Origin: Promethearchaeia archaeon
Lineage (GTDB): Archaea > Asgardarchaeota > Lokiarchaeia > Sigyniarchaeales > SOKP01
Length of the DNA stretch: 19,343 nucleotides
Assembly (NCBI GenBank): GCA_029856125.1
Contig: JAHQWJ010000123.1
Coordinates: 1 to 19,343 of the forward strand
Reading direction: 5' to 3'
This document shows positions 3,561-15,225 of this stretch, piece by piece. The notes under the pieces are model-generated. The model was not told the DNA's origin, ran no database searches, and saw nothing but the letters and a program-made list of their open reading frames with translations. The translations under genes and the position numbers were made by a program. The first letter of the stretch is position 1. The number at the start of each line of letters is the position of its first letter.

Positions 3561-3643
3561 AATATTAGTTGTAAAAGTATATATGAATTTGATTAAGAAA
3601 TAGAATAAATAAAATGAAAATCATAAAAAATTGAATTTCGAGA

Positions 3644-10377: not shown

Positions 10378-11835
10378 CTAATTTATTCCCCACGTAGGCA
10401 ATAGAATAGTATTTGAACCTGCAAGCGAATCTGGATATACTCCTAACGGATAGTTTGACCAATCTCCATATGGACCTGCGTTATATCCGAGCGTATAAAA
10501 GGTGCTTTCTCCAGTAGGTATGCATTTTAGCTCTCCATCTTGCCATTGAGCAAATCTTGTCGTACCAAATGGCCAACCTTCCATGACATCGTGTCTTGTG
10601 TTTCCTAAATCTCCTGTTGTGTAAGCTAATTGTGGAGCCGAAACACCTCTGTCAGCAGTTAAATACGTAGTTCCGTTAAGTGTTTCTAGTTTTGCAATAA
10701 TATCTAACTCTTCAAATGATTGAGTTTCATTAATTGCCCATATTAACGTACCTACTGCATCATAAGTACCTGGTGCCGTATAGATCGTAGGACCATAACC
10801 AAATCTTGTGTTAAAATCAGAGTAAAATTGAGCGGAATAAGATGTCACATTCAATCCAGGAGTAAGCGTAGTCAATAACATTTGGTAATTACACGCTCCG
10901 CCCGTAGTTGCCCAATAATCTGTCATCTGTCCTTCAACATCTATGCCAAATACTGCACATTGAGGTTGTGTTATTCCGTATTGTTTCATCATTTGAATTC
11001 CAGTATCGCCTGAAACTACAGGTATAGCAATTTGAGCTCCATTTGATTCGACTAAATCCCAATAGGTTTCAAAATCAGGATTGGTAATATCGTAAGCTAC
11101 TTCGTACACTATACTGATATTAAGGGCACCTTCAAGGGCGTTGAAAAGATCTGACATACCCACAGTCCAATCAAGCTGCTCTCGAAGTATAGCTACGTTT
11201 CTCACTCTTCTTGATAAATTAGCTTCCATCTCATTTATTAGATGAGCCAATCCCTGTAAAATTTCAAAAGCAAGTTTACTACTTGAAATCGGTGTTTGTC
11301 TGAAGTAGTATTTATATCTTTCATAATTATCCTTAACATTTATACAGAATTCGTCAGTTGCAGAACCACAACCAAAGAACATTAAATCTTCGTCCATTGC
11401 TACTTCAACCATCGCTCTTGTAACTTCGGTTCTAAATCCACCAAATAGATATCTTGCTTCATCTACATAAATTAAGTTTTCGGCCGCAGCCAATCCGGTT
11501 GATATAGGTAACTGGGGATCATGTTCGTTTGTGTTTCGAGCTTTTACCGCAACATAATAGCGAGTGCCATTAACTACAATACCATTATCCTTGGTATTTA
11601 TATCGTATGCTGCTAACCAAGCTCCATTCCAACCTCCAGCACCTTGGATACCCTGTAAACCACCAAGATACCCGCATTTAATCCATTGATCGGAAGGTAT
11701 ACCTGAAACTCCTGGAGTCTCCCATCCTGCTTCTTGAGCTTGTGAAGTAAAAAACCAGACACCCACTCCAATCCCCGCGCCTGCGATTACTACTACTAGT
11801 ACTATCGCCACTATTCTTTTTGTGTTTTTTTCCAT
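10378..11835 (-). CDS. LivK-like ABC substrate-binding protein with an N-terminal membrane anchor
   Basis: Single N-terminal hydrophobic helix, GAWLAAYDIN, GGFRTEV, YYFR, VAILREQLDW, N-glycosylation sequons; first gene of the liv operon. ATG at 11835 follows AGTGAT. Confidence 0.88.
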   Translation of the reverse strand: MEKNTKRIVAIVLVVVIAGAGIGVGVWFFTSQAQEAGWETPGVSGIPSDQWIKCGYLGGLQGIQGAGGWNGAWLAAYDINTKDNGIVVNGTRYYVAVKARNTNEHDPQLPISTGLAAAENLIYVDEARYLFGGFRTEVTRAMVEVAMDEDLMFFGCGSATDEFCINVKDNYERYKYYFRQTPISSSKLAFEILQGLAHLINEMEANLSRRVRNVAILREQLDWTVGMSDLFNALEGALNISIVYEVAYDITNPDFETYWDLVESNGAQIAIPVVSGDTGIQMMKQYGITQPQCAVFGIDVEGQMTDYWATTGGACNYQMLLTTLTPGLNVTSYSAQFYSDFNTRFGYGPTIYTAPGTYDAVGTLIWAINETQSFEELDIIAKLETLNGTTYLTADRGVSAPQLAYTTGDLGNTRHDVMEGWPFGTTRFAQWQDGELKCIPTGESTFYTLGYNAGPYGDWSNYPLGVYPDSLAGSNTILLPTWGIN

Positions 11836-11910
11836 TTTTTTAATCACTTTATTTTTGTTAACTTTTTTTTTGACAAATTTAACTAACTAATTCTATTTCT
11901 GATAAACATA

Positions 11911-11925
11911 TATATAAACTTTCTC
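11911..11925 (-). promoter_or_regulatory. BRE-TATA promoter of the liv operon
   Basis: Minus strand GAGAAAG-TTTATATA, about 75 nt upstream of the ATG at 11835. Confidence 0.6.
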
Positions 11926-11959
11926 AATTAAAGACGCACTTATCATCCCAAAATTAATG

Positions 11960-11980
11960 AAAAGAGAAAAAAGCAAAAAA
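11960..11980 (-). terminator. Oligo-U tracts, candidate archaeal terminator of the acr3 operon
   Basis: Minus strand TTTTTTGCTTTTTTCTCTTTT, downstream of the SECIS-like hairpin and upstream of the liv promoter. Confidence 0.4.
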
Positions 11981-12027
11981 GCTTTTAAACCAATATAAAA
12001 CACTTCTTTTCACAATCTAGTATTAGT

Positions 12028-12093
12028 AGCATAAAGGAAGCAGTCCCTTTGTCAACCTTTCACTATGATTTTTTGAAAGGTCTCATCCATGCT
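12028..12093 (-). other. Candidate eukaryote/Lokiarchaeota-type SECIS element in the 3' UTR
   Basis: Minus strand AGCAU-GG-AUGA-GACCUUUCA-AAAAAUCAUAG-UGAAAGGUU-GA-C-AAAGGGA-CUGC-UUCCUUU-AUGCU. AUGA/GA core, 9-bp upper helix, A-rich apical loop, closing AGCAU/AUGCU helix. Confidence 0.7.
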
Positions 12094-12105
12094 TTTTGTT
12101 TTTTT

Positions 12106-12549
12106 TTACTTAAAATAGTGAGCAAAAGTTTTGTGTTCTTTTCCGTATTTTTTCATGATTACTCTCTTGAACATTCCAAAATCGAGTCGTTCTCTCATGT
12201 TATCAGCTCATCAATCGGCGTGGACTATAAGAGTTATGTCGCTGTTCGAATAAAGATTGAAGTTAACATCGTCCAGAAGAGGCATAAACTCTTTGTTCGG
12301 TCCATAGGCATTACATGCACAATCTTCGTAAATCGCATTCTTTTGTGGGTTCCAGATTAATTGGAGATAGCTCTTAATCAGTCCTTTATACATTGGAAAC
12401 GGTGAAAGCTTGGGATTGTTAAGGAGCTGTCTATCTATCGTAGCCAACGCTTCAATTATCGTTCCTTCTTCCTCAATAGATACTTCGTACTCAATTCCGT
12501 TTGCGAGCTCTTTTTCAGGTCCAAAAATTGTTAGTTTAATTTTTTTAAT
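12106..12549 (-). CDS. Candidate ubiquitin-like (MoaD/ThiS/SAMP beta-grasp) selenoprotein with tandem UGA-UGA, 147 aa if both are read through
   Basis: AGGTGA RBS then ATT at 12549. (M)KKIKLTIFGPEKELANGIEYEVSIEEEGTIIEALATID...EDCAC...NFNLYSNSDITLIVHAD-TGA-TGA-ADNMRERLDFGMFKRVIMKKYGKEHKTFAHYFK-TAA. TGAs at 12211-12213 and 12208-12210. The coding region 12211..12549 is well supported; readthrough is inferred. Confidence 0.7.
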
Positions 12550-12594
12550 CTAATATCACCTTTTTAAAAAAGAAATGAATGAAACGAATTAAGC

Positions 12595-13044
12595 TTATAA
12601 TAACCCTTTTTCCTTTAGAAGTCCGGGTAAATCTTTCTTTAATGCGAATGAAGTAATAAATTTCTTTGTACCATCAACGACAACGCAATTGCCATTTAAA
12701 TTAAGTTTACGAGCATCGTCAGAATCTAAGTCTTTTGTTTCAAACCTTATGTGTTTCATATAAGGGCTAAGTGCCGAAAATACAAGGTTCATAAATTGAG
12801 ACCAAACGCATTCGCAAGCGTTCAGAGGAACATATACATCTACGGATAGTTTATTCGTTTCTATATTTGCTGTCTCTTTCAAATTAATTTCGTGAGTATT
12901 AGGCGATTCTTTTGAAGTTGAGCCCTGACAACAAGAATCTGATGAACCACAACAAGAATTTGACGTACCACAGCTTGATTCCTCTAAGTTTATTTGACTA
13001 TTTTGGTTTTCGCTAACCGATATTTTTATTTCTTCTTTTTCCAT
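12595..13044 (-). CDS. Cys-rich protein with a thioredoxin-like/ArsD-like C-terminal domain, putative metalloid chaperone
   Basis: SSCGTSNSCCGSSDSCCQG low-complexity arm, then VDVYVPLNACEC-helix-strand...CVVVDG-helix; located in the acr3 operon. Confidence 0.6.
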   Translation of the reverse strand: MEKEEIKISVSENQNSQINLEESSCGTSNSCCGSSDSCCQGSTSKESPNTHEINLKETANIETNKLSVDVYVPLNACECVWSQFMNLVFSALSPYMKHIRFETKDLDSDDARKLNLNGNCVVVDGTKKFITSFALKKDLPGLLKEKGLL

Positions 13045-13104: not shown

Positions 13105-13467
13105 TTAACCGCAGCAATTTGAAGTTGTTTCACTTTCATCTTCTGGACCACAAGCACAGCTATTTATGTCTTGATTTCCAGATTTGGCATTTTTTGCTTT
13201 TGCTCTCGCGTTCCATAAACAACCGCACCCTTTCTTTTCCATCATAATGATCGCTTCAACGGGACAATTCCTCTTACAAGCACTACACTCAGTACATAGT
13301 TCAGGATTTTTAATTTCGTATTTCCCAGAATCTGTTTGTTGTGGAAGCCCAAAGGGACACACTTCTGCACATAAACCGCATTTATTGCATAAATTTTCAT
13401 TTATAAATATTTTAAAATCTTTTATAGATAATTTGTCTAAACGAGCTTTAAATTCTGCTTCAGTCAT
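13105..13467 (-). CDS. HgcB-like 2[4Fe-4S] ferredoxin with a Cys-rich tail
   Basis: CNKCGLCAEVCP and CTECSACKRNCP, then GCGCLW, SCACG and terminal NCCG; directly follows the hgcA-like gene; GAGGT RBS. Confidence 0.85.
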   Translation of the reverse strand: MTEAEFKARLDKLSIKDFKIFINENLCNKCGLCAEVCPFGLPQQTDSGKYEIKNPELCTECSACKRNCPVEAIIMMEKKGCGCLWNARAKAKNAKSGNQDINSCACGPEDESETTSNCCG

Positions 13468-13520: not shown

Positions 13521-15188
13521 TTAGAAAAAAATGATTCCAATTACTAATGAAATCAAACTTATAGTTAATAAAACTTTATTTAAAATCTTAAAACGGGGGT
13601 ACTCTTCTTGTATTTCACTAGGACTAGTAGCCATCGTATATCCACTTAACGACATGGTTGAAAAAAATGAAACCCAAAGGAAAAAACTTAAGTTAAAAAG
13701 CGTGAAAATTATCGATTTGTGAAATAAAAAAGAGATTATTCCTAAAATAAAAATATTCAAAGTTCCAAAGAAGATTCCCTTAAGAATAAATCGACGAGTG
13801 AAATTTGCTAGTGGATATGTAAAAGTTATGATAAAATTTGCCGTAACTATCCAGAGTAATAATTCGCCAACCCACCATAATTTAGCGAATAAATTAAGAG
13901 AGTTAAGTATAAGGAATACAAGGAATAAACCTATAAGTGGTAACAAGAAAATCTTTCTTAATAAAAATGTTGTATGCGTGATAAAACCACGAAACCGATG
14001 TTTTAGGGTGAATTTCGCAAGTTTCATTCTATCGGGTTTTCGAGCAGGCCTTTTTTCAAGGAACTCGGGTAAATCTTTAGACCAAACAGGTCCATAAACA
14101 ACTCGAAAAGGAAAATCTTTAGATTTTTTCTGCAATTCTGGAGTAGCTACTCCTCCTGCAGATAATTGTGGGAGAATTAAAGTTTTTTTATTCGTTAAAC
14201 TTTCAATACCAGTAGCTTCAACTGCCTCTACTAGTTGGTTATTTCCAAAATCATTTCCTCTCGCAGCACACCACACATTAATACCGTTAGAGTCAACACA
14301 TAATACCCATGCATCAATACCCTTAAGATCTCTCATTACTTTAATGTAAGTGAATTCATAGTTAGCAGTCACTATTATAGGAGAGGATTCAGTAGGATTT
14401 CCAGATTTGTAAATACCGGGATCTATTGGAACGAGATCAATTTGTCCTGTATAAATGCAGCGATATATTCTTAACTGCGATTTTATTCCTTTGAATCGTT
14501 TTGGTCTAGGTTGATAATATCCTGGCTCAGTGATTCCTTCATCGTCGTTCTTTATGAGTTCGAGAGCTTGAATTGTTCCGTGTTTCCAGTCTTTATTACC
14601 TTTGATTTTGAATCCAATTGGTTCAATATAGGTGAAGAACCATTTTAATAGAAAAGTACTCCGTAATTTTAGACGCCTAAGTTTCTTTTTATATCTCCAT
14701 CTTTTTATTTTAAAGATCATTTTCCAAAAACCACTTGGAACAAATTCTGCAGCAATTATTAACTTACCACTTGGTTTTAATACTTTCCAAACATTTCTAA
14801 GGAAGATTTGTTGTTCAAAAGGTCGAAGTTCTGAAAGCATAAACGTGCTAATTACTAAATCTTGAGAATTAGCTTCCACAGGCATGTTGGAAAATGATCC
14901 AGTTTGATATAAGAGCGTTCCTTCCTTCAAATCTGAAGGATAATTCTGCATTGCATGATTAATCATCTGAAAATTTATATCTATCGCCGTAACATTATTT
15001 CCTTTTAACGCCATTTGAGAGGCGAGGCTTCCAGTCCCACATCCAACTTCTAAGATCGATTTAGAGGTACCAATTTTATCAAGTACCCATTCTCTAACGC
15101 TTAAATTTACACCTTTAGTAAGTGCTGTGAATTTAGAATCATAACTATCGGGCTCTTGTTCGAGTTTACGCATGTATACTACGGCCAT
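13521..15188 (-). CDS. Fusion of a class I SAM methyltransferase, an HgcA-like (CdhD-family) corrinoid-binding domain and a C-terminal transmembrane domain
   Basis: N-term ILEVGCGTG, VTAIDIN, VLKPSGKLII. Middle PGIYKSGNP..SPIIVTANY, AWVLCVDSNGINVWCAARG, LILPQLSAGGV, FRVVYGPV. About 5 TM helices with MSLSGYTMATSPSEIQEE. ATG at 15188 preferred over TTG at 15197. Confidence 0.88.
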   Translation of the reverse strand: MAVVYMRKLEQEPDSYDSKFTALTKGVNLSVREWVLDKIGTSKSILEVGCGTGSLASQMALKGNNVTAIDINFQMINHAMQNYPSDLKEGTLLYQTGSFSNMPVEANSQDLVISTFMLSELRPFEQQIFLRNVWKVLKPSGKLIIAAEFVPSGFWKMIFKIKRWRYKKKLRRLKLRSTFLLKWFFTYIEPIGFKIKGNKDWKHGTIQALELIKNDDEGITEPGYYQPRPKRFKGIKSQLRIYRCIYTGQIDLVPIDPGIYKSGNPTESSPIIVTANYEFTYIKVMRDLKGIDAWVLCVDSNGINVWCAARGNDFGNNQLVEAVEATGIESLTNKKTLILPQLSAGGVATPELQKKSKDFPFRVVYGPVWSKDLPEFLEKRPARKPDRMKLAKFTLKHRFRGFITHTTFLLRKIFLLPLIGLFLVFLILNSLNLFAKLWWVGELLLWIVTANFIITFTYPLANFTRRFILKGIFFGTLNIFILGIISFLFHKSIIFTLFNLSFFLWVSFFSTMSLSGYTMATSPSEIQEEYPRFKILNKVLLTISLISLVIGIIFF

Positions 15189-15225
15189 TAATATCAATCC
15201 TATTTAGTTTTTTAATACTTTTTTA

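Follow-up and report, generated by a model that had tools for sequence, protein, structure and literature searches.

The locus and its 3' element

The window, by which we mean the whole stretch of 19,343 nucleotides analysed here, is contig C122 of a 3.69-Mb metagenome-assembled genome with 32.7% G+C, whose relatives are labelled Promethearchaeota and are thus Asgard archaea of the Loki type. It carries an operon of arsR, acr3, HgcAB-like and Cys-rich-thioredoxin-like genes, the last gene of which contains two adjacent in-frame UGA codons (12213-12208) and ends with TAA at 12108-12106. Downstream of this stop codon lies a 66-base RNA (minus strand, 12028-12093), here treated as a candidate SECIS element. 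Its AUGA begins 19 nt after the TAA and 127 nt after the first UGA, in agreement with the original prediction, which had put these distances at about 20 nt from the stop codon and about 120 nt from the UGA pair. By direct reading of the minus strand, all motifs and helices lie at the following positions, exactly where the original prediction had put them.

12106..12549, minus: gene served by the element, 147 codons, with Sec113-Sec114 and a conserved helical tail, predicted beta-grasp (translation; orthologues; AlphaFold2)
12208..12213, minus: two adjacent in-frame UGA codons, motif HAD-U-U-ADN (translation; TGATGA in 49 of 49 loci)
12028..12093, minus: whole candidate SECIS element, composed of lower helix, kink-turn-type core, upper helix with A-rich loop, and side hairpin (sequence; RNAfold minimum-energy structure; match to covariance model R1 at 12047-12096)
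12088..12093, minus: 5' flank of the SECIS core, comprising G12088 and AGCAU (5' strand of the closing helix)
12093-12089, minus: AGCAU, 5' strand of the closing (canonical-side) helix, pairing with AUGCU at 12032-12028
12088-12087, minus: GG between AGCAU and AUGA, with G12088 pairing with C12051
12083..12086, minus: AUGA motif of the SECIS core (no variation among the 47 orthologous elements)
12054..12082, minus: upper (non-canonical-side) helix of 9 bp, GACCUUUCA / UGAAAGGUU (covariation; RNAalifold)
12082-12074, minus: 5' strand of the upper helix, GACCUUUCA, forming nine standard pairs with UGAAAGGUU
12073-12063, minus: apical loop of 11 nt, AAAAAUCAUAG, starting with AAAAA and ending with AG (direct reading)
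12062-12054, minus: 3' strand of the upper helix, UGAAAGGUU (direct reading)
12053-12052, minus: 3' GA of the core quartet (A invariant among orthologues)
12051, minus: C between the GA and the side hairpin, partner of G12088
12033..12050, minus: side hairpin AAAGGGA-CUGC-UUCCUUU, in the 3' (non-bulged) strand, 1 nt after the core
12050-12044, 12043-12040 and 12039-12033, minus: its pieces AAAGGGA, CUGC and UUCCUUU (direct reading)
12028..12032, minus: AUGCU, 3' strand of the closing helix (RNAfold; orthologue alignment)
11962..11986, minus: oligo-U tracts AAAAGCUUUUUUGCUUUUUUCUCUUUU, about 45 nt 3' of the element

Archaeal transcription terminators are oligo-T tracts, and judged by this general knowledge the oligo-U tracts at 11962-11986 are likely the end of the transcript. 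At its other end, the gene probably starts with the ATT at 12549-12547, located 5 nt behind GGUGA, because a TAG directly precedes it in frame; the next ATG, GTG or TTG would drop the conserved first strand, and most orthologues start at an ATG a few codons earlier.

Predicted fold of the element

The minimum-energy structure returned by RNAfold contains the same three helices as originally drawn (-18.1 kcal/mol), with a z-score of -2.70 measured against dinucleotide shuffles, 4 out of 200 of which fold as well. When the RNA is folded within 171 nt of context, the local fold persists, with an overall z-score of only -0.68. In the window, the helices form a three-way junction without linker bases, as the G12088-C12051 pair, the hairpin pair A12050-U12033 and the closing-helix pair U12089-A12032 follow directly on each other. 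Furthermore, the core shows the sequence features of a kink-turn, namely the G12088-C12051 pair, a GAU bulge and GA/GA. The 3-nt bulge would consist of G12087-A12086-U12085, and tandem sheared G.A pairs would form between G12084 and A12083 on one strand and G12053 and A12052 on the other.

Agreement with lokiSECIS and with the SECIS elements of the same genome

The lokiSECIS, as defined in the text of Mariotti et al. 2016 (PMC4989117), has a 9-bp stem with AUGA on its 5' side and GA (or AA) on its 3' side, and a loop of 11 nt; the first five bases of the loop are mostly A, the loop closes with an ultraconserved G that usually has an A in front of it, and the element is positioned close behind the stop codon. 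The same structure appears in the text of Huang et al. 2024 (PMC11227280) as the type I eSECIS-like structure of Asgard archaea. The candidate has every one of these features, namely the AUGA, the 9 bp of the stem, the 11 nt of the loop with its five initial A and its final AG, the GA, and the position after the stop.

For a comparison within the genome, a covariance model (R1) was built from five of its type I SECIS elements (those of VhuU, PrxL, two VhuD and HdrA), leaving the candidate out. R1 gives the candidate a score of 35.7 bits, with E = 1.6e-6 when the window is searched and 3e-4 when the search covers all 3.69 Mb of the genome; the second-best match in the window reaches 10.6 bits. 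A check with an Infernal model of this kind had been proposed with the original prediction. Genome-wide, R1 detects 13 sites at E <= 1, including the candidate, and those checked follow UGA-containing genes; further sites follow another VhuD, another PrxL (UxxC) and small unannotated ORFs. By a genome pattern scan, the same architecture was found behind a VhuU-type hydrogenase peptide (DCULSCAAH), the PrxL peroxiredoxin (WUHYU), HdrA and two VhuD/MvhD genes with two U each, while both selD genes are followed by the type II form with an apical ministem, side hairpin included. In SelD, HdrA, VhuD, VhuU and PrxL, all with this RNA type downstream, the UGA aligns with known Sec positions. The candidate hairpin is closely similar to those behind the known selenoprotein genes of this genome. 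Rfam, including its eukaryotic SECIS model, gave no matching family at E <= 10 over 11800-12700, with hits at chance level only, in keeping with the published observation that Loki elements escape standard SECIS tools.

More SECIS matches lie behind small unannotated ORFs at C8:48132 (minus), C50:19087 (plus) and C148:27155 (minus). Two examples of ORFs preceding such extra matches, one of 68 residues that is membrane-like and contains LAUGN and another that contains GGGUPSTC, are possible micro-selenoproteins. Among the orthologous loci, a SECIS match was observed behind a zinc-ribbon-like ORF (CPHCG...CQGC...) with several in-frame TGA codons, a possible multi-Sec small protein (L019:7412, L051:2655).

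Conservation and covariation with the UGA pair

Orthologues were sampled as 50 species-representative Asgard loci, 49 of which reach the UGA site. TGATGA is present in all 49, followed by the conserved in-frame tail ADxMxERLDFGxFKRxIMKxYGKxHxxFAHYF. The SECIS pattern occurs in 46 out of 50 loci, 120-144 nt (mode 131) after the first UGA, and R1 locates an element directly behind the gene in approximately 46 loci, among them three that the strict pattern scan missed. The 9-bp stem and the 11-nt loop are kept in 45 of the 46 orthologous elements, the remaining one having a 12-nt loop.

Covariation was measured on a 47-sequence alignment (A4). In the upper helix 93% of the cells are paired, with two-sided changes at 5 pairs (U-A to C-G, n=15; C-G to U-A, n=7), and in the side hairpin 95% are paired, with two-sided changes at 4 pairs, counts that overstate the independent events because many of the orthologues are close relatives. 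The bulge-flanking pair G12088-C12051 is paired in all 47 sequences (G-C in 46, A-U in one), and the next pair shows 7 two-sided changes. In slid registers, pairing drops to 42-57%. Among 500 column shuffles, no more than one equalled the observed covariation on four of five measures; for the remaining measure, which counts further pair types, 51 of 500 shuffles did so in one run and 10 of 500 in another. RNAalifold independently predicts the upper helix and the side hairpin. Bases without variation in the 47 sequences are those of the AUGA, three adenines and the final G of the apical loop, the A of the GA, and one G in the loop of the side hairpin; the G of the 3' GA is replaced by A in a minority of orthologues, corresponding to the known GA_AA variant. 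Both helices show compensatory changes, covariation also supports the bulge-flanking pair, and the element is conserved together with the UGA pair.

A recurrent side hairpin and a clade-specific closing helix

A comparable side hairpin, defined as a stem of 4 bp or more that includes two or more G-C pairs and starts within five bases of the GA/AA, follows 10 out of 12 scored SECIS elements of the genome. Of 20,000 random GA sites, 8% have such a hairpin, and 1% if its loop must also contain a GC. Of the two remaining SECIS elements, one was mis-parsed by the scoring script and one has a bulged hairpin. Nearly all side-hairpin loops in the genome contain GC (CUGC, UGCAC, GCG, AGCA and similar), and the stem sequences differ. 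Judged from these sequences, the side hairpin is a general feature of the genome's SECIS elements and of the orthologues, not a peculiarity of this gene. The main texts of both key Asgard SECIS papers (PMC4989117, PMC11227280) make no mention of a hairpin or junction at this place, and the models described there end at core, upper stem and loop.

The stable AGCAU/AUGCU helix is limited to the clade of the window (the window, L014, L015, L017 and L018) and is weaker in L016, which has a C-G to U-A change. As a family-wide closing helix it was rejected, its register being paired in 54% of the cells across the 47 sequences and the flank duplex energies outside the clade being no better than those of shuffles. 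Because it is not conserved outside this clade, the closing-helix part of the drawn structure may be non-functional. In the other orthologues a canonical helix of 2-4 bp (AUUG/CAAU) is possible beside the bulge, at the cost of the two outer pairs of the hairpin. The original prediction of a variant architecture, with a short upper helix and a three-way junction, has to be revised accordingly: the 9-bp helix with its 11-nt A-rich loop is the published Lokiarchaeota norm and the side hairpin is not gene-specific, leaving the tidy three-way junction as a clade-specific trait.

Selenocysteine machinery of the genome

The proposal of a functional SECIS had presupposed a genome with tRNA-Sec, EFsec, PSTK and SepSecS. 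Of these, SepSecS is present (351.7 bits) and a PSTK-like gene scores 168.6 bits, which is under the NCBIfam cut-off. The genome also has two SelD genes, each carrying one in-frame TGA (GUNCK, GUSCK). The tRNA-Sec gene is located on C101 (minus strand, approximately 1406-1260; locus L089), adjoining SepSecS, and has a 9-bp acceptor stem, the anticodon UCA and a discriminator G. It contains two introns, one of 27 nt in the anticodon loop and one of 30 nt in the T loop, the latter position being already known for Loki tRNA-Sec; same-genus relatives have an intron-less tRNA-Sec of 89 nt. With aragorn and Rfam no tRNA-Sec was found in the genome, and the gene was recovered only by BLAST with a same-genus tRNA-Sec; standard tRNA finders miss this two-intron gene. 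A further candidate of 119 nt proved to be a tRNA that contains an intron and has the anticodon UAA.

The one component not found in the assembly is EFsec, the GTPases detected being EF1A, aIF2-gamma, aIF5B, EF2-like proteins and one SelB-like protein of 366 aa. In same-genus genomes, an EFsec of 485-489 aa is encoded 4-5 kb from the tRNA-Sec. When the EFsec region of a relative (L090) is aligned to this genome, the alignment breaks off at position 3578, where C101 ends, and continues from the end of C42 at position 1, and the missing 2.5 kb between C42:1 and C101:3578 is the place of EFsec in the same-genus relative. Since the gene of the relative thus falls between two syntenic contig ends, the absence is, on this alignment, best read as an assembly gap between C42 and C101. 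Two other candidates for EFsec were discarded: a 602-aa match on C70 is aIF5B, and the best solved relative of the 366-aa GTPase on C32 is the 370-aa EF1A/SelB-like protein 3wnb, ahead of SelB 4ac9. The gene of this GTPase (C32:34502-35602; L066 1315-2415) has, about 1.4 kb away, a type-II-like SECIS match with a side hairpin of its own (C32:36971-37028, minus).

UGA serves as an ordinary stop in this genome, ending 198 of 1547 long ORFs (approximately 13%), three of them in the window, which argues against a general reassignment of the code and means that any recoding has to be context-dependent. No SBP2-like protein was found in the genome, only two small ORFs of the L7Ae family.

A putative Sec-Sec protein with a predicted beta-grasp fold

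Pfam and NCBIfam assign no family to the encoded protein. AlphaFold2, run on a 25-sequence alignment, predicts a beta-grasp body with a helical tail (pLDDT 90.3), for which the best PDB folds are SAMP1, Urm1 and MoaD (E ~2e-3, target TM up to 0.65), along with many ubiquitins, a weak but consistent signal for a ubiquitin-like fold in the model. In the predicted structure, Sec113-Sec114 directly follows the last strand, a site occupied by the Gly-Gly end in sulfur-carrier beta-grasp proteins.

All 143 database relatives are from Asgard archaea, and each either ends at ...HAD or reads HADWW, the latter because translation table 4 was applied to short contigs. No Cys-Cys homologues were found, the close matches ending at HAD or reading WW; distant relatives have G-C-[I/S][T/S] at the Sec-Sec site. 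A Sec-Sec paralogue of the same genome (C112:44497-44042, minus) is 39% identical and carries the motif DVGC-U-U-EKV. Its downstream element (to approximately 43930) has UUGA for AUGA and AA for GA, keeps the side hairpin together with a 7-bp closing helix and contains an extra 5' hairpin. In addition, several orthologous loci have a GC-U-U paralogue with its own SECIS on the strand of the HAD-U-U gene, at a distance of 0.5-3 kb downstream (L019:7050, L030:8256, L033:1774, L035:8503, L039:9193, L047:8241).

Over the 50 loci, the Cys-rich thioredoxin-like gene is upstream in 42, acr3 is a neighbour in 39 and a divergent arsR in 37, whereas a methyltransferase-HgcA-like fusion and an HgcB-like ferredoxin between acr3 and the Cys-rich gene occur in only 12-14. 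In the window, this fusion (13521-15197, minus) joins a CpaM-like SAM methyltransferase to an HgcA-like corrinoid and membrane domain (NCBIfam HgcA 177 bits, HgcAB-like 182 bits) and is followed by the HgcB-like ferredoxin, ending ...NCCG (13105-13467, minus). It is a reasonable inference that the Sec-Sec protein might handle arsenite or a similar soft metalloid via a vicinal diselenol.

Seven selenoprotein families are listed for Asgard archaea in the text of the 2024 survey (PMC11227280), and the Sec-Sec family is not among them; the list in the text of a 2026 review still holds only those seven. As described in its text, the 2024 survey searched for homology to known selenoprotein families through Sec/TGA pairs (PMC11227280), and this is why the family is missing from the list.

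Discussion

Our analysis makes it highly probable that the 66-base RNA is a genuine, functional SECIS of the published Loki type, which recodes both UGA codons of the upstream gene as selenocysteine. This assessment combines the sequence and its predicted fold, the match to the genome's own SECIS elements, the conservation and covariation together with the UGA pair, and the Sec machinery, and it upholds the original prediction of a functional element, for which the R1 match, the UGA-linked conservation and the likeness to known SECIS elements of the genome provide the support. In terms of class, the element, which lies in the 3' UTR of the operon's last gene, is very probably a Lokiarchaeota SECIS of type I (Asgard 'eSECIS-like').

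A kink-turn geometry, a binding partner and the actual insertion of Sec are what we infer beyond this, and the proposed mechanism would run as follows. The mRNA would fold into a kink-turn-type core made up of the G12088-C12051 pair, a bulge of 3 nt (GAU) and the tandem G.A/A.G pairs formed by AUGA and GA, above which would stand the 9-bp helix with its 11-nt loop starting with AAAAA and ending with AG. The side hairpin would be inserted in the non-bulged strand, and in the clade of the window the 5-bp closing helix would complete the three-way junction. This fold would be bound by a factor, possibly EFsec itself, L7Ae or a protein specific to Asgard archaea, and the bound factor would deliver EFsec.GTP.Sec-tRNA(Sec) to ribosomes paused at the UGA codons 127 and 124 nt upstream. 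Both UGA codons would then be read as selenocysteine, and translation would run 33 further codons to the UAA.

Two explanations that dispense with selenocysteine altogether have to be considered. The hairpin could be a generic 3'-end structure, i.e., a terminator or an mRNA-stability element, with UGA-UGA as a true double stop and the downstream frame as a separate small gene or a coincidence; its location in the 3' intergenic region just upstream of the oligo-U tracts would fit, as would the fact that most database entries have the protein ended at HAD by the gene caller. However, the 33-codon tail is in frame, has neither a start codon nor a ribosome-binding site of its own, and its protein sequence is conserved in 49 out of 49 loci. 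The RNA matches a model trained only on the SECIS elements of known selenoprotein genes, and a terminator hairpin would not need the invariance seen in the AUGA, in the A-rich loop and in the A of the 3' GA, so that we consider this explanation extremely improbable. Scarcely more credible, and still very unlikely, is a kink-turn bound by L7Ae for a non-recoding purpose (translational repression or RNA processing, for example), in which case near-cognate readthrough of the UGA codons would insert Trp or Cys. The kink-turn sequence features of the core and a genome with two small L7Ae-family genes but no SBP2-like protein speak for it, and some database entries do read WW, but only through table 4 on short contigs. 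Against it, UGA terminates about 13% of the long ORFs, two consecutive near-cognate readthroughs would be very inefficient, and the same RNA type is found behind SelD, HdrA, VhuD, VhuU and PrxL, with UGA at known Sec positions.

With selenocysteine insertion as the highly probable function, the role of the side hairpin is the next issue, and here our proposals are of lower confidence. We tentatively suggest, at well below even probability, that the side hairpin, whose loop has an invariant G and a GC motif, forms a k-junction-like module together with the kink-turn core and is the true recognition surface for the Asgard SECIS reader, be it EFsec itself, L7Ae or a new protein; if this holds, the hairpin would be the structural feature doing the job that SBP2 does in eukaryotes. 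A rather unlikely alternative is that in a real SECIS only the core and the upper helix matter, the side hairpin being a neutral passenger of SECIS copying between genes. New Asgard selenoprotein genes are suggested in the text of Huang et al. 2024 to acquire their SECIS from existing ones (PMC11227280), the models as published in the main texts require core, upper stem and loop only, and the closing helix is not conserved, all of which would be compatible with mere copying. Yet the pairing of the side hairpin is kept through compensatory changes, its loop G is invariant in 47 sequences, and it occurs behind unrelated selenoprotein genes with different stems and a shared loop GC, which is found at 1% of control sites; together these observations indicate selection rather than mere descent, and a neutral passenger fits the covariation and the invariant loop G poorly.

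The lists of archaeal selenoproteins are very short, and those for Asgard archaea were compiled by homology to known families. The element described here marks a widespread Asgard gene that these lists missed, encoding a predicted ubiquitin-like protein with two adjacent putative selenocysteines and tied to arsenite efflux. Asgard archaea read a eukaryote-like SECIS in the absence of SBP2, and a covarying side hairpin with an invariant loop base, at the place of the third helix of a k-junction, offers a concrete target for mutation and possibly a bait for the missing reader. The RNA type itself is already known, and the interest is in the gene that it exposes and in the overlooked, testable side hairpin.

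Comparison with known systems

With the euryarchaeal SECIS of Methanococcales and Methanopyrus, the candidate shares the 3' UTR position in an archaeon; in contrast to it, the candidate has an AUGA/GA core instead of the GAA_A bulge and the G/C-only upper stem. The eukaryotic SECIS (type I, an SBP2-bound kink-turn RNA) likewise resides in the 3' UTR and has the AUGA...GA quartet, unpaired loop adenosines and a distant action on UGA. It differs from the candidate in that the upper helix of the latter is shorter, as the original prediction had pointed out, and in that a hairpin stands between the 3' GA and the lower helix; in addition, the candidate has no Rfam match at E <= 10 and its genome no SBP2 (PMC4989117, PMC11227280).

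The k-junction of the TPP riboswitch (Wang et al. 2014, PMC4005666) offers a sequence-level analogy to the side hairpin: the insertion site and topology appear to be the same, the hairpin starting 1 nt after the bulge-flanking G-C pair. Unlike in the k-junction, a canonical helix of 2-4 bp (AUUG/CAAU) is possible before the hairpin in most orthologues, which have no third closing helix.

The lokiSECIS is the type to which the candidate very probably belongs. Compared with the published descriptions in their main texts, the candidate serves a family outside the seven listed Asgard selenoprotein families, and its side hairpin and the closing helix of its clade go beyond the published models. Both have the AUGA, a stem of 9 bp, a loop of 11 nt that opens with five A and closes with AG, and the GA after the stem, and in both a single element, placed within tens of nucleotides 3' of the stop codon, serves several UGA codons.
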